The notes under the pieces are model-generated. The model was not told the origin of the DNA. It ran no database searches and worked only from the letters and a program-made list of their open reading frames with translations. Shown here in pieces: positions 3 through 61,867 of a stretch of DNA of 64,000 nt. The position numbers were made by a program, and so were the translations under genes. Numbering within the stretch: position 1 is the stretch's first letter; the number at the start of each line of letters is the position of its first letter. This DNA comes from Alistipes sp. (GTDB lineage: Bacteria; Bacteroidota; Bacteroidia; Bacteroidales; Rikenellaceae). The stretch covers positions 11,334-75,333 of the forward strand of contig JAFQAN010000036.1 in assembly GCA_017416915.1 (NCBI GenBank), given 5' to 3'.

Positions 3-473
3 CTCGAACGACGCCTCACCGAGCGGGGTCTCTTCTGCCGCATCCTCGATGGCGACAACATACGCTTCGGCATCAACCGCGACTTGGGCTTCTCGGAGGC
101 AGACCGCACCGAGAACATACGCCGCATAGCGGAGGTATCGAAGCTCTTCACCCAGACGGGCATCATCACACTTGCCGCCTTCGTATCGCCCACAAACGCC
201 CTGCGCGCTATGGCACGCGAGATTATCGGTGCGGAGGACTTCGCCGAGATATACGTAGCCACACCGTTGGAGGAGTGCGAGAGGCGCGACGTCAAGGGGT
301 TATACCAAAAGGCGCGACGTGGCGAGATTAGGGACTTTACGGGAATAAGCGCCCCCTTCGAGGCTCCCGAAAACCCGACATTGCGTATCGACACCACAAA
401 CCGCCCCGTAGAGGAGGTAACCGACGAGGTGTTGGCAGCGATAATAGAGCGCATAACACCGAAAAACGAGTAA
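3..473 (+). CDS. cysC: Adenylyl-sulfate kinase, 5'-truncated by window edge
   Basis: Frame is open from position 3: LERRLTERGLFCRILDGDNIRFGINRDLGFSEADRTENIRR...RDVKGLYQKARRGEIRDFTGISAPFEAP, typical of APS kinases. Lies upstream of cysD/cysN. Confidence 0.93.
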   Translation, partial: LERRLTERGLFCRILDGDNIRFGINRDLGFSEADRTENIRRIAEVSKLFTQTGIITLAAFVSPTNALRAMAREIIGAEDFAEIYVATPLEECERRDVKGLYQKARRGEIRDFTGISAPFEAPENPTLRIDTTNRPVEEVTDEVLAAIIERITPKNE

Positions 474-509
474 CAACGAACGAATAAAATAACACAAAAT
501 AAACGAGAT

Positions 510-1415
510 ATGTCGTATAGTTTGAGCCACCTGAAAGCTCTCGAAGCAGAGTCTATACATATCATCCGAGAGGTTGCAGCCGAGTTCCGCAACCCCGTGA
601 TGCTATACTCCATAGGCAAGGACTCGTCGGTGATGGTACGCCTTGCCGAGAAGGCATTTGCCCCAGGTAAAGTACCCTTCCCACTGATGCACATCGACTC
701 GAAGTGGAAGTTCCGCGAGATGATAGAGTTTCGCGACAACTATGCCAAGGAGTACAACTGGAACCTCATCGTCGAATACAACAAGAAGGCATACGAGGAG
801 GGTGTGGGACCCTTCACGCACGGCAGCAAGGTACACACCGACCTGATGAAGACGCAGGCGCTGTTGCAGGCGTTGAAGAAGCACGGCTTCGATGCTGCAT
901 TTGGTGGCGCTCGCCGCGACGAGGAGAAGAGCCGCGCCAAGGAGCGCATCTTCTCGTTCCGCAACGAGTTCCAGCAGTGGGACCCCAAGAACCAACGCCC
1001 CGAGTTGTGGGATGTCTATAACACCCGCATCAACGAGGGCGAGAGCATCCGCGTATTCCCGCTATCGAACTGGACAGAGCTGGACGTATGGCAGTATATA
1101 CGTATGGAGAACATCCCCATCGTGCCACTGTACTACGCCAAGGAGCGCCCCATCGTCGAGCTTAACGGCAACCTCATCCTCGCCGATGACGACCGTATGC
1201 CCGAGGAGCTGCGCCGCCAGGCAAAGATGCGTATGGTACGCTTCCGCACGTTGGGATGCTACCCCCTCACGGGCGCCGTGGAGTCGGAGGCAGACACCAT
1301 CGAGAAGATTGTCGAGGAGATGATGACCACCACAAAGTCGGAGCGCACAACACGCGTCATCGACTTCGACCAAGAGGGCAGTATGGAGCAGAAAAAGCGC
1401 GAAGGCTACTTTTAG
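510..1415 (+). CDS. cysD: Sulfate adenylyltransferase subunit 2
   Basis: [39 protein letters not shown] and C-terminal KKREGYF motifs. Confidence 0.97.
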
Positions 1416-1479
1416 ACTTACCAGGAGCGGGATTGCGGCACTCCACGTCAAAAGGGAATGAACGGAAGTTCGCTACGGA

Positions 1480-1650
1480 GCGAAGAGAGACAGCGAGAGG
1501 AGCGAGACAGCAAGAGGAGCGGGACAACGAGACCACGAGACAACGAGACAACGAGACCCCTGAAAAACACAGGCGTTCTCAGTCTTTCTCAGTCTTTCTC
1601 AGTCTTTCTCAGTCGTTCTCAGCCGTTCTCAGCCGTTCTCAGCCGTGCGT
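1480..1650 (+). repeat. Mosaic repeat locus 1: 8-mer array, core (1562-1574), 10-mer array
   Basis: (GAGAC/GGGAC-NAC)n, then gaaaaacacaggc, then 7 x Nttctcag(t/c)c. Lies between cysD and cysN. Confidence 0.9.
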
Positions 1651-1688
1651 AAGCTAAGACACAAGAAAACAAAAACAAAAGAAGATAT

Positions 1689-3116
1689 ATGGCACTAAGC
1701 ATAGAAGAATTTTTGGCACAAGATGAGCGTAAAGACCTCCTACGCCTACTCACGGCAGGCTCTGTCGATGATGGTAAATCGACGCTTATCGGTCGTCTGC
1801 TCTTCGACAGCAAGCGTCTCTACGAGGACCAGTTGCAGACGTTGGAGCGCGACAGCAAGCGTGTGGGCAACGCTGGCGACCACATCGACTACGCGTTGCT
1901 GTGCGACGGCTTAAAGGCGGAGCGCGAGCAGGGCATCACCATAGATGTTGCCTACCGCTACTTCTCGACAAATCGTCGTAAGTTCATCATCGCCGACACC
2001 CCAGGACACGAGCAATATACGCGCAATATGATTACGGGTGGCTCGACAGCAAACCTCGCCATCATCCTCGTAGATGCACGTCAGGGCGTTGTAACGCAGA
2101 CCTGCCGCCATAGCTACCTCGTGTCGCTACTCGGCATCCGCCACGTGGTACTGGCAGTCAATAAGATGGACTTGGTAGGCTTCGACAAGAGCCGCTTCGA
2201 CGCCATCGTCGCCGACTACAAGGGGTGGCTTGCACAACAGGAGTTCACAATCGAGGATTTGCAGTGCATACCCCTCTCGGCATTGGAGGGCGACAACGTG
2301 GTTACGAAGAGCGCAAACACGCCATGGTACGAGGGGCAGTCGCTGATGGACTACCTCGAAACCGTGCCTATCAACCAAGATATAAATATGCAGTCGCTGC
2401 GCTTCCCTGTGCAGTATGTGCTGCGCCCCAACCTCGACTTCCGCGGCTTTGCAGGTAAGCTCTCGTCGGGCGTAGTGAAGCGAGGCGACGAGGTTATGGC
2501 ACTCCCCTCGGGCAAACGCTCGAAGATTAAGAGCATCGTAACATACGACGGTGAGCTTGACGAGGCCTTTGCACCGCAGTCGATAACCCTGACGCTCGAA
2601 GACGAGATAGACCTCTCGCGTGGCGATATGTTGGTACACCCCTCGGATTGTCCCACGGTAGGTCATCATCTGCGCGCTATGATGGTGTGGATGGACGAGC
2701 AACCAATGGACAGCAGCAAGCCCTTCTACCTAAAACATACGACCAACACCACACGCGCCCACGTTACGGCGGTAAGGTATCGCGTCGATATAAACACGGG
2801 CGAGAAGCTCCCGACCGAGGGTATGCGCCTCAACGAGATTTCGGAGGTGTCGATAAGCGCTGCATCGCCCCTGATGTTCGACCGCTATGCCGACAACCGC
2901 CAGACGGGAGCCTTCATCCTTATCGACCCCGTAACGAACTTCACCTCGGCCGTAGGTATGATTTTGGCAGAGGACGAGGCTCGTAGGCTTGGCGAACATA
3001 CCGTAGTGCGCCTCTCGGAGTATGGCATAGAGGCAGAGCATTACCACATTATCGAGAAGTTCTGCAAGGAGTTCACACGACGCACGGGCATCGCCATTGA
3101 GTGTCTTAAAGAGTAA
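1689..3116 (+). CDS. cysN: Sulfate adenylyltransferase subunit 1 (GTPase)
   Basis: [49 protein letters not shown] motifs. Confidence 0.96.
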
Positions 3117-3122
3117 CGACGT

Positions 3123-4223
3123 ATGGGAATATTGAACTTTGAGAAGCTACCCGTTAGCACACTTATAGGCTCCGACAGCAAGACATTTGAGCGCGTGATG
3201 GAGGGTGTCGAGGTAGAGAAGCAGTACCGCTCGAAGATACGCACTACGCGCCTTGTAAGGGGGTTGCTCTCGCCCTTCTACAACATCAACACTCGCCGTT
3301 ACAACGCCCTCCCCGAGAGGGAGTACCCCGCGCCCGTCTTTATCATCGGACATTGGCGCAGTGGCACAACGTTCGTACACAACGTGCTGACGCAGGACAA
3401 GCAGTTTGGCTACTGCACGACCTATCAGACGGTCTTTCCACACCTTATGTTGTGGGGCTACCGCCTCTTCCGCACCATTGTCAAGTTCTTTATGCCCTCG
3501 ACACGCGCCACCGACAAGATGGAGCTTGGCGTGGACATACCGCAGGAGGAGGAGATAGCCTTGTCGAATATGACGCCTATGGCGCACTACCACTTCCTTA
3601 GCTTCCCGCAGCGCATAGACCACTACCGCGACCACTGCCTGCTAATGAACAACACCACCGAGGAGGAGCGCGACGAGTTCAAGGCGGCACTGCGTAAGTT
3701 GGTGCGCACGTCGCTCGAAGTGCAGCACAAGGAGGTCTTTCTCTCGAAGAACCCGCCACACACGGCGCGCATAAAGACAATATTGGAGATGTGGCCCGAC
3801 GCCAAGTTCATCTACTTGGTGCGTAACCCCTATACGGTCATCAAGTCCACACGCGACTTCTTCGGCAAGACCACCCGCTCGACGACGCTTCAACACTTCG
3901 ACGAGGAGGGCTTCGAGGAGCAGGTGCTAAGGACATACAAGGCGCTCTACGACAGCTACGAACGCGATAAGAGCCTTATCCCCGAGGGCAACCTCATAGA
4001 GATACGCTTCGAGGAGTTCGAGGCAGACCCCGTGGAGAATGCCCGAAAGATTTACGAGAAGCTACGCTTAGGCGACTTTGAGGCTGTGCGCCCCGCAATG
4101 GAGAAGTACGCAGGCACGAAGCGCGGCTTCAAGAAGAACCGCTACCAGTACGACCCCCACACCGTGGAGTTAGTCGAGAAGTGGTGCGGCGAGGCACTAC
4201 ACAAGTGGGACTACCACCTTTAA
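3123..4223 (+). CDS. PAPS-dependent sulfotransferase (resembles the Bacteroides BT0416-type steroid sulfotransferase)
   Basis: 5'-PSB motif FIIGHWRSGTTFVHN, LSKNPPHT and 3'-PB motif YLVRNPY. Directly downstream of cysN. Confidence 0.88.
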   Translation: MGILNFEKLPVSTLIGSDSKTFERVMEGVEVEKQYRSKIRTTRLVRGLLSPFYNINTRRYNALPEREYPAPVFIIGHWRSGTTFVHNVLTQDKQFGYCTTYQTVFPHLMLWGYRLFRTIVKFFMPSTRATDKMELGVDIPQEEEIALSNMTPMAHYHFLSFPQRIDHYRDHCLLMNNTTEEERDEFKAALRKLVRTSLEVQHKEVFLSKNPPHTARIKTILEMWPDAKFIYLVRNPYTVIKSTRDFFGKTTRSTTLQHFDEEGFEEQVLRTYKALYDSYERDKSLIPEGNLIEIRFEEFEADPVENARKIYEKLRLGDFEAVRPAMEKYAGTKRGFKKNRYQYDPHTVELVEKWCGEALHKWDYHL

Positions 4224-4269
4224 GCAGACTAACTCTTAATCACTAACCTACAACGCAAAACCTCTAATT

Positions 4270-5412
4270 ATGAAGATACTTGCAATATACTTTCGTTCGG
4301 GCAGTGGCATATCGGTAATCTACGAGCGCATCTTCTGCGAGTTGGCGAAACACGCCACGGTGGATGTGCTGAGCGATATGGCACACAGCACCGAGTCGAT
4401 GCCGATACGTAACACATATAGTCTTCCTATGTCGCGCTTTACGCAGTCGCTCTACCGCAAGTGCCTTCGCAACTTTGGCAAAGCACCTATCTCGGAGTGG
4501 TGGAGCCGCAAGGCTATGCGTGTGGTTGCCAACGACTACGACCTTGTCATCGCCTTTGTCGCCAGCTCGCAGCTCACGCCCATCGTCAGCGGCAAGCTCA
4601 TAGCCGAGAAGTTAGGCTGTAAGTTTGCCATCTACTCGGTGGATGCCATACCTGCGCCAGGCGGCTGGACAAAGCCTCGTGAGTACCGCGGCAAGTTGAA
4701 GATTGTCAGCAAGTACTTCGCCTCGGCAGACTACGTGGCGTCGTCGAATAAGCATATGCTCGACTTCCAGCTCTCCACGTTCAAACACAAGCAAGGGTTG
4801 CGTAGCAACGTGCTGCTCACACCCTCGCCCAACGAGGAGTACCACTTCCCCGTGTCGAACGAGGAGCTTATACTCTACACAGGCTCGCTCTACGGTCTGC
4901 GCAACCCCAACTACCTGTTCGGGGCGTTCAAGCGACTGCTTAAAACATACCCTAACGCACGACTGCAACTCGTAGGTATGAAGCACCGCCTGCGCCAGAT
5001 GGACGACATACTGAGCGTAGAGGAGCGCGAGAGAGTGATAATAAGCCCGCACACCTCAAACCTTGCGCCGCTATTCGAGAGGGCGCGTGTGCTTATCGAC
5101 ATCGACGCCGACAGAGAGAAGGACCCCTTCCTGTCGAGCAAGATTATCACATACCTCAAAACCAACCGTATGATACTCTGCGAGACGGGCAAGGACACCC
5201 CCTCGCGCGAGATGTTCCACGGCTACAAGACCATCATCCAGTGCGACCACAACGAGGATAGCTTCTACGAGGGTCTGATGCGCGCTATGGAGCTGAGCCA
5301 AAGCGAGCAGGACTACTCGGAGCGAGAGCCTCTTATCAAGGCGTTCTCAATCGACGTGGTATGCTCCATCTTCTGGGAGGACATCAAGGCTCTGTGCAAC
5401 GTCAGCGAGTAG
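4270..5412 (+). CDS. Putative GT-B fold (GT4-like) glycosyltransferase
   Basis: 380-aa ORF with LILYTGSLYGLRNP and SSKIITYL segments resembling GT4 C-terminal domains. Confidence 0.6.
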   Translation: MKILAIYFRSGSGISVIYERIFCELAKHATVDVLSDMAHSTESMPIRNTYSLPMSRFTQSLYRKCLRNFGKAPISEWWSRKAMRVVANDYDLVIAFVASSQLTPIVSGKLIAEKLGCKFAIYSVDAIPAPGGWTKPREYRGKLKIVSKYFASADYVASSNKHMLDFQLSTFKHKQGLRSNVLLTPSPNEEYHFPVSNEELILYTGSLYGLRNPNYLFGAFKRLLKTYPNARLQLVGMKHRLRQMDDILSVEERERVIISPHTSNLAPLFERARVLIDIDADREKDPFLSSKIITYLKTNRMILCETGKDTPSREMFHGYKTIIQCDHNEDSFYEGLMRAMELSQSEQDYSEREPLIKAFSIDVVCSIFWEDIKALCNVSE

Positions 5413-5638: not shown

Positions 5639-8638
5639 ATGAAAAAACTTCATCTTTTGCTCACCGTGCTTATCTCAGCCCTCATCATTGTCAGCTGCGA
5701 GGATAAGTTCACAGGCGTCCAAAACCCCGTAGGTCCCAACTCGGGACAGAAGCCCGATGACGGCAACGATGACGGCAATGATGACGGCAACGACGTTGTC
5801 ATCGACCTCACGAAGGATTATCCCCTTATCTCGACCATTCCTACCTTCGTCACGGAGGATATGACCGAGGATGTTACGGTTATCGTAAATGGCAAGGGCA
5901 CAGCTATCGACGGCTTCACAGGCGACTTGTACGCTCACACGGGCGTCATCACCTCGGCAAGCACAGGTCCGTCGGACTGGAAATACACCAAGGCGGACTG
6001 GACCGAGAATACCCCCGCCTGCAAGCTTAAAAAAGAGGGCGCCGAGATTTGGACACTCACATTGAAGGGTGGCCCTCGCGCCTTCTACGGCGTGCCTGCG
6101 GGCGAGTCTATCGAGCGTCTTGCCTTTGTATTCCGCTCGGGCGACGGCACTAAGGAGCTTAAAAACAACGGCAACGACATCTTCATCGACTTGGTGTCGG
6201 AGGGTATGTCGGTGATGTTCGTATCGCCCACAAGCGGCACTATCCTCAACATCGGCGACAGCTGCACCGTGCAGGTTAAGGCGAAGGGCGCTACATCGCT
6301 CACACTCTTCAAGAACGACGAGCAGATTGCCCAGACCGAAGAGAGTAGCATCGAATATACTTACACCCCCACAACCACCGAGGATGCCATATTTAAGGCT
6401 GTGGCTACGGATGGCGTAACCACCGTCGAAGAGAGCGTAACTGTTGCCGTGCTTGGTACTACACAGAACGAGCCTCGCCCCGCAAATGTCAAGGGCGGCG
6501 TAAATATCGACGGCACGTCGGCAACCTTCGTACTCTACGCTCCAGGCAAGCAGAGCGTAAACCTGCTTGGCGACTTCAACGACTACGCACCGACCAACAA
6601 ACATATGATGAAGCGCGACGGCGACTACTTCTGGGTTACGGTCGATGGCTTGGAGTCGGGTGTCGAGTATGGCTACCAATACCTCGTCGATGGCACTATC
6701 AAGATTGGCGACCCCTACGCCGAGAAGATTCTCGACCCGTGGAACGACCAGTGGATAAATCATAACACGATGATTTACCCCGACCTCAAACCCTACCCCT
6801 CGGAGTACACCACCGACATCGTCTCGGTATTCGACATCGACGACAAGGAGTACAACTGGCAGGTACGCGACTTTGACCGTCCCGCCGAGAACTCATTGGC
6901 GGTATATGAGTTGCTTATCCGCGACTTCACCGCCGAGCGCTCGATTGACGCTGTACGCGCAAAGCTCGACTACTTGGAGGGCTTGGGCATCAACGCCATC
7001 GAGCTGATGCCTATCCAGGAGTTCGACGGCAACGACTCGTGGGGCTATAACCCCTGCTTCTACTTCGCTGCCGACAAGGCATACGGCACCGAGGAGGCAT
7101 ACAAGCAGTTTATCGACGAGTGCCACCAGCGCGGCATAGCCGTTATCCTCGACGTAGTATTCAACCACGCCACGGGACAGTTCCCCTACGCTAAGATGTG
7201 GTGGGATTCATCGAAGAACTGCACCGCTGCCGACAACCCCTTCTTCAACGTCACGGCGAAGCACAACTTCAACGTATATCACGACTTCAACCACACCTAC
7301 GCGCCTACACGCGAGTACTTTAAGGAGGTATTGACCTTCTGGTTGGAGGAGTACAATGTCGATGGCTTCCGCTTCGACCTCACCAAGGGCTTCGTGCAGA
7401 ACCCCTCGAACTACGACGCTTGGAATTATAGCGCCGAGCGTATCGGCATCTTGAAGGAGTATGCCAACGCCATCCGTGCCGTAGAGCCCGACGCCTACAT
7501 CATCTTCGAACACTTCTGCGAGCAATCTGAGGAGGATGAGCTTTACAACTCTGTTGGCGCACTCTGCTGGAACAACAACCAGTTGGAGGGTTATAGTGAG
7601 ACCGCTATGGGCTGGTGGGACGGCGGCGACGACAGCAGCAGCGAGTACTGGGGCGTTATGGGCGACTTGCAGAGCAACAACTGGAAGAACGACATCACCC
7701 TGACATTGCAAAACGGCATCTACGTAGCACAGGATGTCATCTTCGCCGATGCCAATAAGCAGGGCTGCGTCTTCAAGATTCGCAAGAACCGCAACTGGGA
7801 TACCTCGTACGGCGTGAGCAACGGCTCTACGCTCAACAACCTCGGCACAGCAATCTCGCTCAACGGCACACTGAACGTGCTGATGAATGCTCAGGTGGGT
7901 GTTAAGTACGACATCTACTTCGACAAGGCAAATATGAAGGTATGGGTTATGCCCGACGGTCAGAAGCCCTCGAATATCTCGGCACCCGCACGTAGCAGCC
8001 GCACCCGCGCAGGTAGCAATAAGACCAACTTCGCAGACTTCAAGCGTGGTCGTATGAACAATATCGAGACCCACGACGAGGAGCGCATCGCCTACAAGGT
8101 ATTTGAGTATGGTCAGGAGTGGGTAAAGAGCGATATGGCAGTGGTATCGAAGCGCTTACAGGCTCTCTACGCCTTCCACTTCCTCACCCCCTACCCCAAG
8201 ATGCTGTGGCAGTTTGGCGAGCTTGGCTACGACTTCTCGATTAACTCTGACGAGAATGGCGTTGTAGGCTCTTCGGATGACAACCGTACACACCGCAAGC
8301 CTGTGCGTTGGGACTACTTCGACGATGCCAACCGTAAGGCTATCTACACGGCTATCTCGAAGGTCCTCAACTTCCGCACCGAGCGCGAGGATATATATGG
8401 CAGCGATAACGTCGCAATCCACAAGTGGGATGTTGGCGACAACGTAATGGGTGGCAAGACCCTCGTTATGGATAACGTGATTATGGTTGCCAACTTCACC
8501 AACGCGACGGTATCTACCACCGTAAATGTTCCTGCCGCTGGCGAGTGGACCAATCTGATGACTGGCGAGAAGACGACGCTCGGCAGCCAGTACACCGCAA
8601 CACTTGCAGGCAGCGACTACGTCATCTTCGTAAGGTAA
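5639..8638 (+). CDS. Surface lipoprotein alpha-amylase/pullulanase-like GH13 with N-terminal accessory domains, CBM48-like domain and an inserted binding module
   Basis: Lipoprotein signal (IIVSC-EDK). GH13 motifs AIELMPIQEF, WGYNP, VILDVVFNH, DGFRFDLTKG, YIIFEH, ETHDEER. Confidence 0.9.
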   Translation: MKKLHLLLTVLISALIIVSCEDKFTGVQNPVGPNSGQKPDDGNDDGNDDGNDVVIDLTKDYPLISTIPTFVTEDMTEDVTVIVNGKGTAIDGFTGDLYAHTGVITSASTGPSDWKYTKADWTENTPACKLKKEGAEIWTLTLKGGPRAFYGVPAGESIERLAFVFRSGDGTKELKNNGNDIFIDLVSEGMSVMFVSPTSGTILNIGDSCTVQVKAKGATSLTLFKNDEQIAQTEESSIEYTYTPTTTEDAIFKAVATDGVTTVEESVTVAVLGTTQNEPRPANVKGGVNIDGTSATFVLYAPGKQSVNLLGDFNDYAPTNKHMMKRDGDYFWVTVDGLESGVEYGYQYLVDGTIKIGDPYAEKILDPWNDQWINHNTMIYPDLKPYPSEYTTDIVSVFDIDDKEYNWQVRDFDRPAENSLAVYELLIRDFTAERSIDAVRAKLDYLEGLGINAIELMPIQEFDGNDSWGYNPCFYFAADKAYGTEEAYKQFIDECHQRGIAVILDVVFNHATGQFPYAKMWWDSSKNCTAADNPFFNVTAKHNFNVYHDFNHTYAPTREYFKEVLTFWLEEYNVDGFRFDLTKGFVQNPSNYDAWNYSAERIGILKEYANAIRAVEPDAYIIFEHFCEQSEEDELYNSVGALCWNNNQLEGYSETAMGWWDGGDDSSSEYWGVMGDLQSNNWKNDITLTLQNGIYVAQDVIFADANKQGCVFKIRKNRNWDTSYGVSNGSTLNNLGTAISLNGTLNVLMNAQVGVKYDIYFDKANMKVWVMPDGQKPSNISAPARSSRTRAGSNKTNFADFKRGRMNNIETHDEERIAYKVFEYGQEWVKSDMAVVSKRLQALYAFHFLTPYPKMLWQFGELGYDFSINSDENGVVGSSDDNRTHRKPVRWDYFDDANRKAIYTAISKVLNFRTEREDIYGSDNVAIHKWDVGDNVMGGKTLVMDNVIMVANFTNATVSTTVNVPAAGEWTNLMTGEKTTLGSQYTATLAGSDYVIFVR

Positions 8639-8737: not shown

Positions 8738-9342
8738 GGGACTTTGAGACTACGAGACGACGGGACTACGGGACCACGAGACCCCAGAAAAACACAGGCG
8801 TTCTCAGCCGTTCCCAGCCGTTCCCAGCCGTACGAGGCAGTGCGCTATCACCACGCTCCCAAGCGAGATGAATTTTTGTTAGAAGGGGTTAGATGTGGTG
8901 CTATCCCGAAAGATGGCTGGATGGGGGTTTACTTGGGCGTACATCCCCATTCAGACAGATGAGGGTAGTGCCGCAGATGACCCCTTATCACAAAAATTGC
9001 TTGGCGTCAGAAGGGCGCCGAGTGCTACGCTCGACAAAAGATGCCGCCGATGGACATTCTCTCTCTCCCTCTCCCGCGCACGAATTTAGTGTCAGAAGTT
9101 GTAAGATGTGGTGCATCACAAAAGAGAACCCCGCGGGATAGTACTATGTAGTACAGCCCACGGGATTCTACTTTTTGGGATGTGCCGCAGATTGCAGCTT
9201 ATCACACTAAATGACATTTTTGATTAGAGGGCTGCTTATACAACGCTCGACAAAAGATGCCGCCGATGGGTAGTACTTGCGCGTACGTCCCATTGGCGGC
9301 ATCTTTGTTAGCGGCAGTAGAAGTCTGCCCTATGATTGAAAA
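8738..9342 (+). repeat. Mosaic repeat locus 2: 8-mer/core/10-mer unit plus four tandem hairpin modules
   Basis: Core at 8787-8799. Hairpins at 8871-8998, 8999-9057 (left half only), 9084-9212 and 9216-9343. Lies between convergent GH13 and tnaA. Confidence 0.9.
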
Positions 9343-10716
9343 TTATAGGCGCTCGAGCTTAACAGTAAAGTGACGCATCAACTCGGTCTCCCATACAATC
9401 TTCACACCACGTGTAATCTCGTGACGACGATCATATACGTTCTTCAACGCTGCGGCGATAACGTCCATATGGTTGTTGGTGTATGAACGACGTGCGATGC
9501 ACAAGCGCAACAAGTCGAGACCACCAAAACGGTTCTCACGGGTTACGGGGTCGCGGTCAGCGAGGATGTAGCCAATCTCGCAGCCACGTACACCTGCCTC
9601 CAAGTAAAGCTCAATAGCGAGGGTCTGTGCGGGGAACTCCTCCTTAGGAATGTTGCTAAGCACCTTGTCGGCATCTACGAAGATGGCGTGGCCACCTACG
9701 GGACGCTGGTAAGGAATACCGTACTCGTCGAGCTTAGCTGCGAGGTACTGCACCTGCTTGATACGTGTCTCGATAGTGGGAAGCTCGGTGTTCTCGTCCA
9801 AGCCTACTGCCAAAGCTGCCATATCGCGACCGTTCATACCACCATAGGTAAGGAAGCCCTCGAAGGGGATACAGAAGCGCTTAGCACCCTCGTACCAATC
9901 CTCGTGGCGTGTAGCGATGAAGCCACCCATATTTACCAAGCCGTCCTTCTTTGACGACATTGTCATACCATCGGCATAAGAGAACATCTCCTTGCAAATC
10001 TCCTTGATGCTCTTATCTGCGTAGCCCTCCTCGCGGGTCTTGATGAAGTATGCGTTCTCAACGAAACGTGCTGAGTCGAATACCACGCGCTTGCCATACT
10101 TGTCGGCGATAGCACGTACCTCACGGAGGTTCTTCATTGATACGGGCTGACCACCTGCGGTGTTGTTGGTAATGGTAACGATGATGAAGGGAATCTTCTC
10201 GGCGTTCTCTGCCAATGCCTTCTCCAACTTAGCGGGATCTACCTCGCCCTTGAAGGGAATCTCGAGCTGAGTATCCTTCGCAGCGTCGATGGTACAGTCC
10301 AAAGCGGTAGCCTTGCGGAACTCGATATGACCCTTAGTGGTGTCGAAGTGCGAGTTGCCAGGGATGATGTCGCCAGCCTTTACAAGGTGTGAGAACAACA
10401 CGTTCTCAGCAGCACGACCCTGGTGAGTAGGGATAACATACTCGAAGCCTGTAATCTTGAAGATAGTCTCTTTAAGCTCGAAGAATGACTTTGAACCAGC
10501 ATACGCCTCGTCGCCAGTCATCATTGCTGCCCACTGACGGTCGCTCATAGCGCCAGTACCCGAGTCGGTAAGGCAGTCGATGTAAACCTGCTCAGACTTC
10601 AAACCGAAGAGGTTGTAGTGTGCCTCTTTGAGCCACTGCTCACGCTCCTCGCGAGTACTCATACGCAAGGGCTCAACCATCTTGATACGGTACGATTCTG
10701 CAAATGGAAGTTTCAT
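9343..10716 (-). CDS. tnaA: Tryptophanase
   Basis: Beta-eliminating lyase with PLP motif MSSKKD. Residues HFDTT, CEIG and RHFT match tryptophanase rather than tyrosine phenol-lyase (FTTT, MERG, RFFT). Confidence 0.88.
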   Translation of the reverse strand: MKLPFAESYRIKMVEPLRMSTREEREQWLKEAHYNLFGLKSEQVYIDCLTDSGTGAMSDRQWAAMMTGDEAYAGSKSFFELKETIFKITGFEYVIPTHQGRAAENVLFSHLVKAGDIIPGNSHFDTTKGHIEFRKATALDCTIDAAKDTQLEIPFKGEVDPAKLEKALAENAEKIPFIIVTITNNTAGGQPVSMKNLREVRAIADKYGKRVVFDSARFVENAYFIKTREEGYADKSIKEICKEMFSYADGMTMSSKKDGLVNMGGFIATRHEDWYEGAKRFCIPFEGFLTYGGMNGRDMAALAVGLDENTELPTIETRIKQVQYLAAKLDEYGIPYQRPVGGHAIFVDADKVLSNIPKEEFPAQTLAIELYLEAGVRGCEIGYILADRDPVTRENRFGGLDLLRLCIARRSYTNNHMDVIAAALKNVYDRRHEITRGVKIVWETELMRHFTVKLERL

Positions 10717-10910: not shown

Positions 10911-11912
10911 TTATTGTTTTTTCACTAACAGTTCCAATATCTGTATGGCGTTAAGTGCTGCACCCTTGCGAATCTGGTCTGCAACGCACCAGAAGGTGAT
11001 GCCGCGCTCGTTTGTGAGGTCCTTGCGCAGACGACCCACATATACGGGGTTGCTGCCCTGAGCGTACAGGGGCATAGGGTAGCGCTTCTCGGCTGGCTCG
11101 TCGATAAGCACGATGCCCTCAGCCTTAGCAAAGGCGTCGCGCACGTCGCTGAGGTTAAGCTCCTCCTCGGTCTCTACCCATATCGCCTCGGAGTGGGCGC
11201 GCATAACGGGAACACGTACACACGTTGCCGAGGTGCGGATGTCGGAGTGCATAATCTTACGTGTCTCGTAGAACATCTTCATCTCCTCCTTGGTGTAGTC
11301 GTTGTCCTGGAATACGTCGATGTGGGGTATGAGGTTATAGGCGAGCTGGTAGGCGAACTTCTCGACCTTAGGCTCACGGCCCTCGACTATGGCGCGGTGC
11401 TGCTCCTCGAACTCCTGCATAGCCGATGCTCCTGCGCCACTTGCCGACTGGTAGGTGGCGACGTGGACGTGCGTGATGTGCGACAGTCGCTCGATAACAC
11501 CCAGAGCCACAACCATCTGTATTGTTGTGCAGTTGGGGTTTGCTATGATGTGGCGCGGTGCATTAAAGGCATCCTCGCCATTGACCTCGGGAACGACCAG
11601 AGGCACGTCCTCGTCCATACGGAAGGCGCTCGAATTATCAATCATAAAGGCACCATACTTGGTGATGGTGTCGGCATACTCCTTCGAGGTTGATGCGCCT
11701 GCCGAGCATAGAGCGACATCTATGTCCTTGAAGTCGTCGTTGTGTTGTAGCTCACGCACGACAATATCCTCGCCACGGAAGCGGTATGTCGTCCCTGCGC
11801 TACGTTTCGAACCGAAGAGGCGTAGCTCCTCGATAGGCATCGGATGTGATTCCAATATTGAGAGAAACTCCTGTCCCACTGCGCCACTTGCGCCAACAAT
11901 TGCAATCTTCAT
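10911..11912 (-). CDS. asd: Aspartate-semialdehyde dehydrogenase
   Basis: [49 protein letters not shown]. Confidence 0.97.
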
Positions 11913-17633: not shown

Positions 17634-17990
17634 TTTTTGTGATAAGGGGCTATCTGCGGCGCTATGATACAAGTTGCCCCGCGCAGCTGGGGATGGCTGA
17701 GAACGACTGGGAAAGACTGAGAATGACTGAGAATGGCTGTGTTTTTCAGGGGACTACGGGACTACGGGACTTCGGGATATTGCGGGATATTGCGGGATAT
17801 TGCGGGATATTGCGGGCGATGCCCGCATTTTTCGCAGACGTGTAGTCTCGTCGTCTCGTGGTCTCGTGGTCTCGTCGTCCCGTGGTCCCGTCGTCTCGTT
17901 GGCGCGCCCTCAGGCGTTCTCAGGCGTTCTCAGTCTTTCTCAGGCATTCTCAGCCAATCGCGCCCCCCACCTATGCGTATCTAAGCTAAC
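17634..17990 (-). repeat. Mosaic repeat locus 3: half hairpin, inverted 10-mer/core, (ttgcgggata)x4, 8-mers, ggcgcgcc, 10-mers
   Basis: gtgataagggg at about 17639; inverted core at 17735-17747; arrays read directly from sequence. Confidence 0.88.
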
Positions 17991-21566: not shown

Positions 21567-22877
21567 ATGGCATTATTCAAGGTTAAGGGTGGTTACCGTC
21601 TCAAAGGAGAGATTGTACCTCAGGGTGCTAAAAATGAGGCACTTCAAATAATATGTGCTACGCTGCTCACATCGGAGCGCGTGGTACTGCACAACGTACC
21701 TATCATCGCCGATGTTATGCAGCTGCTCGACCTGCTCTCGGCGATGGGTGTCAAGGTGGAGCGCCTGGGCGAGGATAGCTTTGCTATCACTGCCGCAGAG
21801 GTAAACCTCGACTATCTGCGTAGCGCCGACTATCACAAGCGTTGCCGCCGTCTGCGCGGCTCGGTGATGATGATAGGTCCGCTCTTGGCGCGCTATGGTG
21901 TGGGCTTTATGCCCAAGCCTGGTGGCGATAAGATTGGCCGCCGCAGGTTAGACACCCACTTTCTCGGCTTCCAGAAGCTCGGCGCGACGTTCAACTTCGA
22001 CCTCAGCGACGAGTTCTACACCGTTGAGGCTGAGCGCTTGAAGGGTACATATATGCTCCTCGACGAGGCGTCAGTAACGGGTACGGCAAATATCGTTATG
22101 GCGGCGGTGCTTGCCGAGGGTCGCACCACAATATACAATGCGGCGTGTGAGCCATACCTGCAACAGCTCTGCAAGATGCTCAACCGTATGGGCGCCCGCA
22201 TATCGGGCATCGCCTCTAACCTGCTCACCATCGACGGCGTGGAGTCGCTCGGCGGCACCGAACACACTATGCTGCCCGATATGATTGAGGTGGGTAGCTT
22301 TATCGGTATGGCGGCGATGACACGCTCGGAGCTGACCATCAAGGATGTGTCGTACGACAACCTCGGCATCATACCTCAGCAGTTTGCACGTATGGGCATA
22401 CGCTTTGAGCAGCGCGGCGACGACATCTACATCCCCGAGCAGGGCAATTACAGCATCGAGAGCTTTATCGATGGCTCTATTATGACCATCGCCGATGCTC
22501 CGTGGCCAGGACTTACGCCCGACCTGCTCTCGATATTCCTTGTGGTGGCAACACAGGCGAAGGGTTCGGTGTTGATACACCAAAAGATGTTTGAGAGCCG
22601 CCTCTTCTTTGTCGATAAGCTTATAGATATGGGTGCGCAGATTATCCTCTGCGACCCGCACCGCGCTACGGTGATAGGTCTCGACCACCGTCTGCCGCTA
22701 CGTGCTGCAAATATGACCTCGCCCGATATTCGTGCAGGCGTGGCACTGCTCATTGCGGCGATGAGTGCCGAGGGTACTTCGACAATACAGAATATAGAGC
22801 AGATAGACCGTGGCTATCGTGCGATAGATACACGTCTCAATGCGTTGGGAGCGCATATTATGCGTCTCGACGAGTAA
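21567..22877 (+). CDS. murA: UDP-N-acetylglucosamine 1-carboxyvinyltransferase
   Basis: GAKNEALQI, PGGDKIGRR (Cys-to-Asp variant), PWPGLTPDL, SPDIRAG, IDRGY. Confidence 0.96.
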   Translation: MALFKVKGGYRLKGEIVPQGAKNEALQIICATLLTSERVVLHNVPIIADVMQLLDLLSAMGVKVERLGEDSFAITAAEVNLDYLRSADYHKRCRRLRGSVMMIGPLLARYGVGFMPKPGGDKIGRRRLDTHFLGFQKLGATFNFDLSDEFYTVEAERLKGTYMLLDEASVTGTANIVMAAVLAEGRTTIYNAACEPYLQQLCKMLNRMGARISGIASNLLTIDGVESLGGTEHTMLPDMIEVGSFIGMAAMTRSELTIKDVSYDNLGIIPQQFARMGIRFEQRGDDIYIPEQGNYSIESFIDGSIMTIADAPWPGLTPDLLSIFLVVATQAKGSVLIHQKMFESRLFFVDKLIDMGAQIILCDPHRATVIGLDHRLPLRAANMTSPDIRAGVALLIAAMSAEGTSTIQNIEQIDRGYRAIDTRLNALGAHIMRLDE

Positions 22878-23128
22878 ATTTGTTGTGATAAGGGGTCATC
22901 TACTGCCGCTAACGAATTATCTCGCCAATGGGCAGTACGTTCAAGTACAGCCCATCGGCTCGAAATTCGCCGAGCGTTGTATCTGACGCCCTTCTGACAA
23001 CAAATTGCCTTGCACTGCTGAGAACGCCTGAGAAAGACTGAGAAAGACTGAGAACGCCTGTGTTTTTCAGTGGACTTAGGGTATCTCGCAGTCCCGTGGT
23101 CTCGTGGTCCCGTAGTCTCGCAGTCCTG
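22877..23128 (-). repeat. Mosaic repeat locus 4 (inverted): full hairpin 22877-23006, 10-mers, core, 8-mers
   Basis: aatttgttgtgataag...cttctgacaacaaatt; inverted core at 23056-23068. Confidence 0.92.
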
Positions 23129-26812: not shown

Positions 26813-27049
26813 GGGAATTTAGAGAATTTAGAGAGGTTAGGGAGCGCACTGCCTCGCACGACTGGGAACGACTGAGAATGCCTGGGAATGCCTGTGTTTT
26901 TCTGGGGTCCCGTGGTCTCGCAGTCTCGTGGTCTCGTGGTCCCGCAGTGCCGCCGATAAAGAGATTGGGCTGGATGGATAGTACTTGACGTACATTCCAT
27001 TCAGCCCAATGATTGAGGCGGCGCTGATGCGCCGCTATCACAACAAATT
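26813..27049. repeat. Mosaic repeat locus 5: 9-mers, inverted 10-mer/core/8-mer unit, hairpin lacking its left terminus
   Basis: Inverted core at 26890-26902; hairpin 26946-27049 ends ctatcacaacaaat. Confidence 0.88.
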
Positions 27050-29669: not shown

Positions 29670-30124
29670 AGCGAGAGCGGCTGAGAGGCGCGCGATTGAC
29701 TGAGAAAGAGTGGGTGGCGCGCAATTGACTGAGAACGCCTGAGAAAGACTGAGAAAGACTGGGAAAGACTGAGAATGACTGGGTGGCGCGCCAACCGAGA
29801 CAACGAGACGACGGGACGACGGGACTACGGGACTACGGGACTGCGAGACTGCGAGACCACGGGACGACGAGACCACGAGACCACGAGACCACGAGACCGC
29901 AATACCCCAAAAAAACACAGTCGTTCTCAGGCATTCTCAGGCATTCTCAGTCGTGCGTGGCCGTGCGTGGCTGTACGTGGCAGCTTGGCGTCAGAGTGGT
30001 GTAGATGTGTTCTATCGCAAAAGAGAGTGCCGTGGGATAGTACTAAAACGTACAGCCCACGGCACTCTACTTTTTGGGATAGGACGCAGATGCGCCGCTA
30101 TCACGTCAAGCTATCACGCCAAGC
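29670..30124 (+). repeat. Mosaic repeat locus 6: ggcgcgc caps, inverted 10-mers, 8-mer array, core, 10-mers, full hairpin 29983-30111 and a duplicated right terminus
   Basis: Core at 29909-29922; ...ctatcacgtcaag-ctatcacgccaagc. Confidence 0.92.
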
Positions 30125-36854: not shown

Positions 36855-36879
36855 AAGTTTTTTTGAGGGGGGGGGAAAT

Positions 36880-37434
36880 GCTGGGTGGCGCGCGATTGAC
36901 TGGGAATGGCTGAGTGGGCGCGCGATTGACTGAGAATGACTGAGAACGACTGAGAACGACTGGGTGGCGCGCCGACGGGACTACGGGACTACGGGACTGC
37001 GAGACTACGAGACAACGAGACTGCGAGACTGCGGGACAACGAGACTACGAGACTACGAGACTACGAGACTGCGGGACCACGGGACCACGGGATACCCTAA
37101 AAAACACAGGCGTTCTCAGGCATTCTCAGGCGTTCTCAGTCGTGCAAGGCAGTACGTGGCTGCGCGAGGCAGCTTGGCGTCAGAGTGGTGCAGTAGTACC
37201 GCCGATAAAGAGATTGGGCTGGATGGATAGTACTGTGCGTACATTCCATTCAGCCCAATGATTGAGGCGGCGCTGATGCGCCGCTATCACGCCAAGCAAC
37301 GACAAGGGCTTGGTGTGAGAAGGGCGCCGAGTGCTACACTCGGCAAAAATGCCGTCGATGGGTAGTACTAAGACGTACGTCCCATTGACGGCATTTTTTG
37401 TTAGGGGACGCAATCGACCCCTTATCACGCCAAG
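36880..37434 (+). repeat. Mosaic repeat locus 7: caps, inverted 10-mers, long 8-mer array, core, 10-mers, two full hairpins (37172-37297, 37308-37434)
   Basis: Core at 37099-37111; the second hairpin ends 1 nt before the POT transporter stop codon. Confidence 0.93.
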
Positions 37435-42154: not shown

Positions 42155-42446
42155 GAGCGGCTGAGAGGCGCAACCACGAGACTGCGAGACCACGAGACTG
42201 CGGGACTGCGAGACCACGAGACTACGAGACTGCGAGACTGCGGGACCACGAGACCACGAGACCACGAGACTGCGAGACCTCTGAAAAACACAGTCTTTCT
42301 CAGGCGTTCCCAGTCGTTCTCAGGCATTCTCAGTCTTTCTCAGGCGTTCTCAGTCATTCCCAGGCGTTCCCAGTCATTCCCAGTCGTTCTCAGTCGTGCG
42401 AGGCTGTGCGAAGCTGTGCGAGGCATTGCCCCTTATCACGCCAAAG
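42155..42446 (+). repeat. Mosaic repeat locus 8: 8-mer array, core, 10-mer array, hairpin right tip
   Basis: Core at 42283-42295; ends ccccttatcacgccaaag. Confidence 0.92.
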
Positions 42447-44186: not shown

Positions 44187-44400
44187 GCGAGACGACGAGA
44201 CGACGAGACGACGAGACGACTGAGAACGACTGAGAATGCCTGAGAATGCCTGTGTTTTTTAGGGTATCCCGTGGTCCCACAGTCCCGCAGTCCCGTGGTC
44301 CCGCAGTCCCGTGGTCTCGTAGTCTCGTAGTCCCGCAGTCCCGTGGTCCCGTGGTCTCGCACCACCCGCACATCCATAAACTCCATAAACTCCCTAATCA
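44187..44400 (-). repeat. Mosaic repeat locus 9: 8-mers grading into 10-mers, inverted core, 8-mer array, 9-mers
   Basis: (gagacgac)4-tgagaacgac-(tgagaatgcc)2-tgtgtttttt; core at 44248-44260. Confidence 0.92.
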
Positions 44401-46689: not shown

Positions 46690-46862
46690 TTGTTGTCAGA
46701 AGACGAGAGATGTGGCACATCGCCAAAGAATAAAATTTGTTGTCAGAAGGCATTAGATACAACGCTCGGTGAATTTGTCGGCGATGGGCTGTACTAAAAC
46801 GTACTGCCCATTGCCGACACAATTCATTAGCGGCAGTAGATGATGCCTTATCACAACAAATT
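46690..46862 (+). repeat. Mosaic repeat locus 10: truncated left half plus full hairpin 46734-46862, without microsatellite arms
   Basis: aatttgttgtcagaaggcat...atgccttatcacaacaaatt; overlaps the kdsC stop codon. Confidence 0.9.
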
Positions 46863-61639: not shown

Positions 61640-61867
61640 ACGGCGGGACTGCGAGACAACGGGACTACGAGACCCCCGAAAAACACAGGCATTCTCAGGC
61701 GTTCCCAGGCGTTCTCAGCCATTCTCAGTCGTGCGCGGCAGTTTGTTGTGAGAGTGGTGCAGATGTGGTGCATCGCAAAAGAGAGCACCACGGGATAGTA
61801 CCAAAACGTACAGCCCGTGGTGTTTTACTTTTGGGATGTACCGCAGATGCGCCACTATCACAACAAA
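61640..61867 (+). repeat. Mosaic repeat locus 11: 8-mers, core, 10-mers, full hairpin 61742-61867
   Basis: Core at 61678-61690; tttgttgtgagagtgg...ccactatcacaacaaa. Confidence 0.92.

Follow-up and report, generated by a model that had tools for sequence, protein, structure and literature searches.

What accounts for a short fixed core, with tandem 8-mers on one side and tandem 10-mers on the other, in ten gene spacers along one stretch of a gut bacterial genome? The stretch in question (the window; 64,000 nt, positions 11334–75333 of contig C14) belongs to a ruminant-gut Alistipes assembly (G000; 1.97 Mb in 42 contigs, 51.6% GC, ~93% complete), which is compared below with other Alistipes genomes (G010, G012, G013, G015, G076 and G130). 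An earlier note on this DNA had flagged the copy around the core at 29911 and read such copies as iteron-like or transposon-subterminal protein-binding arrays, or as products of iterative templated synthesis around a fixed seed. Our analysis points elsewhere: the dispersed copies are probably gene-less foldback derivatives of a cassette in which short-period arrays arm a gene for a four-helix-bundle protein, that is, selfish inhabitants of gene spacers, akin to the intervening sequences (IVS) of rRNA genes, rather than signals serving the host. We favour this reading because the one gene of G000 for a four-helix-bundle protein with a suffix domain has, on both of its sides, inverted 10-mer arrays like those of the dispersed copies, again around an AAAAC turn.

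Architecture of the foldback

Arrays were located with Tandem Repeats Finder (TRF), units were parsed genome-wide in a register-aware manner with a position weight matrix (PWM), and the genome was tokenised into clusters of GC junctions (J), inverted and forward 10-mer arrays (T< and T>), 8-mer arrays (E> and E<), cores (K) and GTGCGWGGCN arrays (R). Ten cores had been reported in the window, with coordinates off by 1–2 nt; nine are exact copies of AAAAACACAGKC (1563, 8788, 23056r, 26890r, 29911, 37100, 42284, 44248r and 61679), against 0.01 expected from shuffles, and the tenth, 17735r, is a variant, AAAAACACAGCC (...CAGCC). The two kinds of arm described beside the cores are indeed present, with an 8-nt array on one side and a 10-nt array on the other detected by TRF at every window site; genome-wide, 63 of the 67 strict cores are preceded by at least two 8-mer units within 120 nt and 66 are followed by at least one 10-mer unit. 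Overall, G000 carries 139 8-mer arrays (1346 units, consensus CGRGACNR) and 188 10-mer arrays (886 units, consensus NTTCYCAGKC), the conserved positions of both units standing at 89%–99%.

These modules fall into 137 clusters, which make up 1.2% of the genome and follow the canonical order J T< J E> K> T> R>, such that a full copy consists of the GGCGCGCC junction, (GACTGRGAAN)n, TGGCGCGCCA, (CGRGACNR)n, AAAAACACAGKC, (NTTCYCAGKC)n and (GTGCGWGGCN)n. The earlier note had captured only the inner half of this element, missing the outer inverted 10-mer array and the GGCGCGCC junction. Because the full grammar exceeds that inner half, the flagged copy is taken to extend over ~29680–29982 (its J-token cluster, C14 41019–41314, corresponds to window 29686–29981), starting ~20 nt past the stop codon (29657) of an upstream short-chain dehydrogenase gene; the last six bases of its core amount to a degenerate first 10-mer unit. 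When the window copies are aligned on the core, module order is constant, and the outer ends are ragged and differ from copy to copy. Arrays also occur without the core: roughly half of their segments lie next to a different fixed junction, such as the core variants AAAAACCCAGGC and AAAAACTCAGGC, the GC palindrome TTGGCGCGCC[AT]CCCAGTC or the GCGGGCGATGCCCGC hairpin with an A/T run. Since coreless arrays meet these junctions, the core is just one junction among several in a larger grammar, and the arrays cannot be classed as ordinary microsatellites.

The left and right 10-mer arrays are reverse complements of each other and form a stem: T< and T> pair in the minimum-energy RNA folds of both strands (z = -3.7 and -4.9), with the 8-mer array in the loop. 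The suggestion that both arms carry one word also stands, GRGA being common to the 8-mer and the 10-mer, written GRGA on one strand and TCYC on the other, with the polarity flipping at the core. The 8-mer equals the left-arm 10-mer minus two bases, has the polarity of the left arm and may have been derived from the 10-mer. As both unit types carry GRGA and the 10-mer arms are inverted, the arms previously called inward-pointing correspond to the two halves of a foldback, whose turn is the core, A-rich and accompanied by the 8-mer array. Foldback copies are intergenic throughout, all ten in the window lying between protein-coding open reading frames (ORFs), and the dispersed copies, roughly 100–140 in number, are non-coding and fast-changing. 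Within the copy that has the variant core, window 17773–17816 contains (CGGGATATTG) x4.4, in which the left arm of the stem of the GC hairpin GGGATATTGCGGGCGATGCCCGCAATATCCC has been multiplied in tandem, a case of in-place duplication at hairpin flanks.

It is highly improbable that this architecture was produced by reverse transcriptase (RT)-templated synthesis, as in diversity-generating retroelements (DGRs) or retrons, that it represents classical transposon ends or miniature transposable elements with inverted repeats (MITEs), or that it was moved like repetitive extragenic palindromic (REP) elements by a REP-associated tyrosine transposase (RAYT). Almost randomised degenerate positions, such as the A/G choice at unit position 3, and a strand polarity reminiscent of single-strand transposition of the IS200/IS605 type would fit such an origin, but neither terminal inverted repeats nor target duplications were seen, and PF01797 (RAYT, Y1 transposase) had no match in G000 or G013, while PF00078 (RT; control genomes gave matches) and PF13366 (PDDEXK_3) had none in seven genomes, namely, G000 and six related ones; the absence from G000 is not absolute because the genome is ~93% complete. 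Templated synthesis accompanied by an RT, as envisaged previously, thus loses its proposed partner, and subterminal transposon repeats are contradicted by the ragged ends and the lack of a transposase of the types tested. The iteron-like reading is likewise at odds with ~137 chromosomal intergenic clusters that are spread over at least 30 contigs in ordinary gene spacers with no link to a replicon. Several more specific candidates were also set aside: a strict 23S rRNA IVS (the window copies lie between protein-coding ORFs, not in helix 25 or 45), REP elements or the bacterial interspersed mosaic elements (BIMEs) built from them (no PF01797 match; units that are direct tandem 8/10-mers, not imperfect palindromes of 20–40 nt), MITEs (outer ends that vary from copy to copy, no terminal inverted repeats) and the arms of a PDDEXK_3 (GxxExxY) nuclease cassette (no PF13366 gene in the seven genomes). 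When Rfam covariance models were run on the window, only a tRNA reached its gathering score.

The four-helix-bundle cassette and its relatives

The arms of the dispersed element lead to a single gene. A PF05635 profile search of G000 yielded one weak match (C20:109646–109879), to a 181-aa protein that scores 28 with TIGR02436 (cut-off 24) and 66.5 with TIGR04258, ‘four helix bundle suffix’ (cut-off 40). Its AF2 model, built on a 60-sequence alignment, has a pLDDT of 91 (a single-sequence model, with a pLDDT of 45, was unusable) and finds its best fold matches in the S23p-family structures 2GSC and 2RLD (probability 1.0; target-normalised TM 0.86 and 0.68–0.78, respectively). Sequence searches against the PDB returned nothing for the single protein and, with a profile, only 2GSC (E = 0.32). 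As judged from the profile scores and the predicted structure, the protein belongs to the S23p/23S-rRNA-IVS four-helix-bundle family, whose structurally solved members form pentameric rings.

The gene is bracketed by two complete foldbacks, in the order T< x13, turn, T> x5, gene, T< x9, turn, T> x7, with GAAAAC as the turn; as in the dispersed elements, the 10-mers of both arms are of the NTTCYCAGNC family and surround AAAAC. It is the only small gene in G000 that is tightly bracketed by arrays; the one other array-flanked ORF is a 332-aa housekeeping gene, which we take to encode fructose-bisphosphate aldolase. The four-helix-bundle protein has at least 7990 close homologues, most of them on very short contigs, as would be anticipated for genes with repeats on their flanks.

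Related genes in other Alistipes are armed in the same manner but with different words. The homologues in G010, G013 and G130 are 48%–57% identical to the G000 protein (G010 vs G013, 92%) and are flanked by paired inverted arrays of different units: the 10-mers are of the GGTAG type in G010 and G013, and G130 has AAAGGGTTGYGG. GCGCGC junctions are found in every one of these composites, and an A/T-run turn as well in those of G010 and G013. In G076, a plain PF05635 gene lies between (AGTTAGG)n and (TAACTCC)n. The suffix-type gene is present in 36 of 101 Alistipes genomes, and its dN/dS of 0.058 between G010 and G013, indicative of purifying selection, argues that it is functional. Short-period arrays were found near the gene at 28 of 30 loci (two or more at 21), compared with 3 and 1, respectively, of 11 control loci. 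Protein identity correlates with the sharing of array 7-mers (Mantel r = 0.80, with none of 5000 permutations as high), such sharing being seen only above ~80% protein identity. In G013, the GGTAG-type arrays occupy at least 35 loci; in G010 they are confined to the cassette, and G000, G012, G015 and G130 lack them.

These associations bear on the possibility that the arrays are intergenic mosaics standing on their own, as BIME, BOX or BrickBuilt do, and arise and spread by slippage and recombination alone, the gene being just one of many spacers that they occupy. The ragged ends, the many module combinations, the failure to find a mobilising enzyme among the three families searched (PF00078, PF01797 and PF13366), the lack of 8-mer, core and R modules in the cassette and the presence of elements without a detected gene in G015 would all suit such repeats. 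Nevertheless, we regard this explanation as unlikely, given that arrays flank the gene family far more often than control loci, that their units track protein similarity, that the GGTAG unit is found only at the gene in G010 and dispersed in G013, and that in G000 no other small gene is as tightly bracketed. Because the arrays bracket the gene and their units follow protein similarity across Alistipes, it can reasonably be proposed that the four-helix-bundle protein recognises the repeated units of the arms; of the protein-binding arrays imagined in the earlier note, this much may be retained, without the iteron and transposon-subterminal forms.

Lineage restriction, strain turnover and strand polarity

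The dispersed element is almost confined to the species of G000. The core-plus-unit pattern matches 70 times in G000 and once in G015, and 59 other relatives lack it. When 121 genomes of the genus were searched for the arrays, the 10-mer pattern was found 326 times in G000 and weakly in G015, G076 and G130, and the 8-mer pattern 558 times in G000, 19 times in G015 and four times in G130; the G000 units are essentially missing from 117 other Alistipes genomes. A scan of 185,579 species genomes, one per species, for the core pattern gave a true match in Alistipes sp. RGIG2011 (G015, from goat colon), which carries two full composites with a grammar identical to that of G000. One other match was inspected, in a leucine-rich repeat (LRR) gene of a rumen Bacteroidales, and proved to be a chance occurrence inside coding sequence; the remaining matches are single and in unrelated taxa. 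In viral contigs, the core pattern was not found and the arm patterns returned a few unrelated single arrays. A high-GC viral contig (L144; IMG/VR 3300038379_000133) has, at 7250–7345, nine tandem GGCGTTCCCA units, the 10-mer of one T-unit variant. A 2568-nt contig of G130 (L010; C117) is 98% identical to G000 C5:98372–99805 over 1434 nt, departs from it inside a 10-mer array and ends in a hairpin module of the kind described below, and is likely to be a mis-binned or chimeric contig broken at repeats.

The closest relatives, G010, G012, G013 and G015, show ~80% nucleotide identity to G000 in matched flanks, mostly genes, and carry no arrays in these regions. At the 42.2-kb copy, ~290 nt are missing from the orthologous spacers of the sister species G013 and G010, with the downstream motifs recognisably kept; no target duplication is visible there, the spacers being too diverged for a strict test. 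In G010 (L065; C24), the place of the 8/10-mer element is taken by a separate three-copy 35-nt tandem repeat, GGCCGGCAGAGCAGACTGAATAGAGAGGGCGATAA. Downstream of the dehydrogenase gene that precedes the flagged copy, the relatives have spacers of 50–150 nt with simple terminators, and no exact empty site can be defined because synteny breaks directly after the stop codon in all four.

Within the species, the arrays are remodelled rapidly. An identical CysD (window 510–1412) is encoded on many metagenome contigs; in each of the ten strains compared, the repeat element is present between cysD and cysN, in a spacer of 270–358 nt with 4–12 8-mer and 4–10 10-mer units. The units at either end, like the core and the unique flanks, are conserved, and those in the interior vary in number and order, in agreement with the copy-number variation and shuffled variants previously suspected. 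Contig pairs with no differences over 2334 nt of flanking coding sequence have identical arrays, whereas in a pair with 11 differences (0.5%) the number and order of units have already changed; arrays are, accordingly, rebuilt between strains less than 0.5% apart. They are not assembly artefacts, since independent assemblies of the window's own strain reproduce them exactly at three loci; at the flagged locus, contigs of other assemblies end within the neighbouring hairpin module. A long-read basecalling artefact as the source of the A/G mix at position 3 was considered and rejected, as the mix is also present in the separately assembled G015 and G130 metagenome-assembled genomes and the arrays of one strain come out identical in independent metagenome assemblies. 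In the cysD–cysN spacer, on the upstream side of the 8-mer array (window 1416–1520), a 17-nt unit (GAGCGAGACARCGAGAG-like) is also variable in copy number (loci L107–L116), with L107 and L115 differing by 33 nt at this unit despite identical flanking genes.

Adjacent units agree more often than shuffled ones at position 7 (z = 5–6), and the A/G choice at position 3 is almost random both within and between arrays. None of the 40-mers (4–5 units) from six strain-variant arrays recurs elsewhere in G000, although the shuffled expectation is also close to zero (0.003–0.005) and the power of the comparison is low; as no such tract recurs, copying of long tracts from other loci is unsupported, without being refuted. 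We suggest that the arrays grow, shrink and are scrambled in place through slipped-strand mispairing combined with change at degenerate positions.

The orientation of the element is linked to nucleotide skew. With GC skew calculated per contig from coding sequence only (contigs of at least 20 kb with |skew| of at least 0.02), 67 of 72 copies have K> on the C-rich strand (p = 6e-15), with the same outcome in 15 of 15 contigs; gene-strand bias is weak and does not follow element polarity. GC skew is generally established as a proxy for replication direction. With skew as the proxy, the element appears to be oriented with respect to the replication fork, and such near-absolute polarity points to a replication-coupled step, in which copies might be made or retained strand-specifically at the fork.

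Copies are also positioned non-randomly with respect to genes, as delineated by crude, ORF-based calls: 28 of 71 lie in convergent spacers, which account for ~12% of all spacers, only six lie in divergent ones, and in 51 of 71 the 10-mer/R side of the core is turned toward the 3′ end of a converging gene. This positioning and the bias relative to skew, together with the GC hairpin followed by a T-run in some copies, could be taken to suggest polar chromosome signals serving the host in recombination, segregation or replication, similar to Chi or KOPS, or else 3′-end RNA stabilisers or terminators. Such a role is quite improbable for a repeat that is absent from nearly all congeners, including sister species at the above level of flank identity, and the units of which are unconstrained in number and order between near-identical strains; moreover, the hairpin and T-run face the upstream gene, as a terminator should, in only five of eight scorable cases, which is not decisive. 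From the standpoint of the host, the copies would instead be selfish or neutral, and their transcripts would form IVS-like stems.

Several observations weigh against the derivation of the dispersed copies from the cassette. The direction of this derivation is read mainly from G010, in which arrays are present only at the gene, and the copies have yielded no defined ends, target duplication, recent identical pair or observed movement. The cassette has only 10-mers, leaving the source of the 8-mer array, the exact core and the R array unexplained, and no four-helix-bundle gene was detected in G015 (88% complete) despite its two full element copies. The 181-aa protein scores 28.4 with PF05635, below the Pfam cut-off of 33.8, and is not notably basic (pI 6.1–8.9). 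Plain co-inheritance of the gene with its flanks, rather than recognition, could account for the Mantel correlation. Finally, replication direction is read through GC skew in an assembly of 42 contigs, and the contig of the window itself has a skew of only -0.011, with mixed copy orientations.

Relation to known elements and accompanying repeats

The closest parallel is offered by the ORF-bearing 23S IVS of Coxiella burnetii and Leptospira, which share with the Alistipes cassette the PF05635/TIGR02436 four-helix family and a stem of inverted sequence around the gene (PMC4990558). In C. burnetii, the S23p ORF is preceded by strain-variable tandem GACAGAT heptamers (x2–3) and the IVS has been proposed to be horizontally acquired (PMC4990558), so that short tandem units of variable number beside the ORF and a patchy distribution suggestive of horizontal spread are common to both. 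The Alistipes element differs in residing in spacers of protein-coding genes rather than in helix 25 or 45 of 23S rRNA, in its long 8-/10-mer arrays and ~100–140 gene-less copies, and in a gene to which the TIGR04258 suffix domain is added and which is placed between two complete foldbacks instead of in a single loop.

BOX of Streptococcus pneumoniae and BIME/REP of Escherichia coli are modular mosaics in intergenic DNA, in which an inner module varies in copy number, stable hairpins are predicted and gene 3′ ends are preferred. These properties recur in the Alistipes element, the sequence of which is unrelated, with microsatellite-like arrays of 8–10-nt units instead of boxes of 35–60 nt, and without a RAYT. 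In IS200/IS605-family and REP/RAYT elements, orientation is tied to the replication strand, as expected of single-stranded DNA events at the fork; the Alistipes element shares this trait (by the skew proxy) and lacks both a Y1 transposase gene and subterminal guide hairpins of that type. BrickBuilt of Porphyromonas gingivalis, a MITE with a minisatellite core, is likewise from Bacteroidales, species-specific and always intergenic, its tandem-repeat core lying between a fixed leader and tail (PMC4596501); there, one 23-nt unit forms direct repeats with small terminal inverted repeats, whereas in the Alistipes element 8/10-nt units make up two inverted arrays, a protein gene is linked and terminal inverted repeats are lacking. 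Arrays of 7–10-nt units in 2–27 copies, non-coding, rare between divergent genes and variable in copy number, are also seen in the cyanobacterial short tandemly repeated repetitive (STRR) sequences and in the abundant, intergenic and unexplained G-rich heptamers GGGAATC/GGGGAYT of Xanthomonas and Nostoc (PMC4692102). By contrast, the Alistipes element joins two unit lengths in fixed order and polarity via conserved junctions into a foldback, has units that match the arms of a specific gene cassette and shows near-absolute polarity relative to GC skew.

New in this comparison are a suffix-domain subfamily whose gene has a foldback on either side, arms that mix 8- and 10-nt units and have fixed junctions, the contrast between cassette-only and dispersed arrays in sister species, the rebuilding of arrays at strain level and the near-absolute orientation relative to skew; a literature search found no paper linking the four-helix-bundle family to dispersed gene-less arrays. 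PF05635 resembles the DGR accessory protein Avd (PMC10053308). A more general proposal, rather doubtful at present, is that S23p/Avd-like proteins and tandem-repeat arms constitute a transposase-free class of mobile or self-maintaining elements, in which the ring protein would read the repeated units of arms specific to its lineage and promote their copying or retention on a single strand at the replication fork, seeding gene-less foldbacks. If so, a common thread would run through rRNA intervening sequences, the short-period intergenic arrays, so far unexplained, of many bacteria and the Alistipes family, and G010 (cassette only), G013 and G000 (dispersed) would form a natural before-and-after series. 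Short-period tandem arrays fill intergenic DNA of many bacteria, and we know of no accepted origin for them; nor, to our knowledge, do the thousands of members of the S23p/Avd-like family have a known function outside DGRs. G000 links the two in a testable manner, with one gene, one unit word and more than 100 gene-less copies, and further handles are provided by sister species with another word or without dispersal, measurable strain turnover and near-absolute polarity. In practical terms, the repeats break short-read assemblies of gut Alistipes, and the arrays are hypervariable strain markers.

Table 1. Coordinates of the element copies, their modules and associated genes (window positions unless a contig is given)
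Feature	Position	Strand	Description	Basis
Outer junction zone, flagged copy	29680–29726	+	Two GGCGCGC junctions (29687–29694, 29716–29722) interleaved with single GACTGAGAA units	Sequence, J tokens
Left arm T<, flagged copy	29727–29783	+	5.5 units GACTGRGAAN	TRF 29727–29781, period 10; pairs with 29923–29952 in both RNA folds
J junction, flagged copy	29784–29793		10-bp palindrome TGGCGCGCCA between 10-mer and 8-mer arrays	Sequence; genome-wide recurrence as TTGGCGCGCC[AT]CCCAGTC
E> array, flagged copy	29796–29898	+	12.9 units CGRGACNR	TRF, PWM
Core K, flagged copy	29911–29922	+	AAAAACACAGTC; polarity flips here	Pattern match, comparison with cassette turn CTGGGAAAACTCTCTCAGCC
Right arm T>, flagged copy	29923–29952	+	3 units NTTCTCAGKC	Sequence, TRF
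R array, flagged copy	29953–29982	+	3 units GTRCGTGGCN; usual tail after right arm	TRF, R tokens
Hairpin module	29983–30111	+	128 nt, near-palindromic; separate older repeat family	Multi-copy matches in G010, G012, G013, G015
Copy in cysD–cysN spacer	1487–1660	+	E5 K T7; used for strain comparison	
Copy	8746–8831	+	E K T3	
Nested copy	17693–17953	-	Variant core AAAAACACAGCC; in K orientation T< J E> (GCGGGCGATGCCCGC GC hairpin + A/T run) E< K T>	
Copy	23018–23126	-	E K T3	
Copy	26858–26948	-	E K T3; 8-mer array abuts truncated hairpin module	
Full copy	36873–37143	+	J T< J E14 K T3 R	
Copy at 42.2 kb	42173–42424	+	E13 K T10 R3; ~290 nt absent from G013/G010 orthologous spacer	
Copy	44188–44359	-	E12 K T3 E4<; right arm passes from 10-mers into inverted 8-mers	
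Copy	61645–61732	+	E4 K T4	
cysC-cysD-cysN-sulfotransferase operon	3–5412			Pfam calls
Four-helix-bundle-plus-suffix gene	G000 C20:109367–109912	-	181 aa	TIGR02436, TIGR04258

Two further repeat types accompany the foldbacks in the window. The 128-nt hairpin modules (8871–9343, 22877–23006, 29983–30111, 37172–37434, 46734–46862 and 61742–61867) are near-palindromic, with covarying stems and conserved GTSAGA/TATCAC ends, and, unlike the arrays, are multi-copy in G010, G012, G013 and G015; at the flagged locus, strains differ in the module variant that occupies the same place. A third array type, (TTAGGGARW)n, consists of 9-mers and is present in the window at 26815–26844 and 44373–44397 and elsewhere in G000 at C1:48823, C5:99692, C7:72782, C21:50437 and C42:23185, adjoining GCGGGCRATGCCCGC and a conserved tail of ~60 nt (TACAAACCAAGTATCTGACGTC...). 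In other Alistipes, four-helix-bundle-suffix genes (loci L097, L105 and L106) have arms of similar 9-mers, and the (TTAGGGARW)n sites may be relics of a second cassette dialect.

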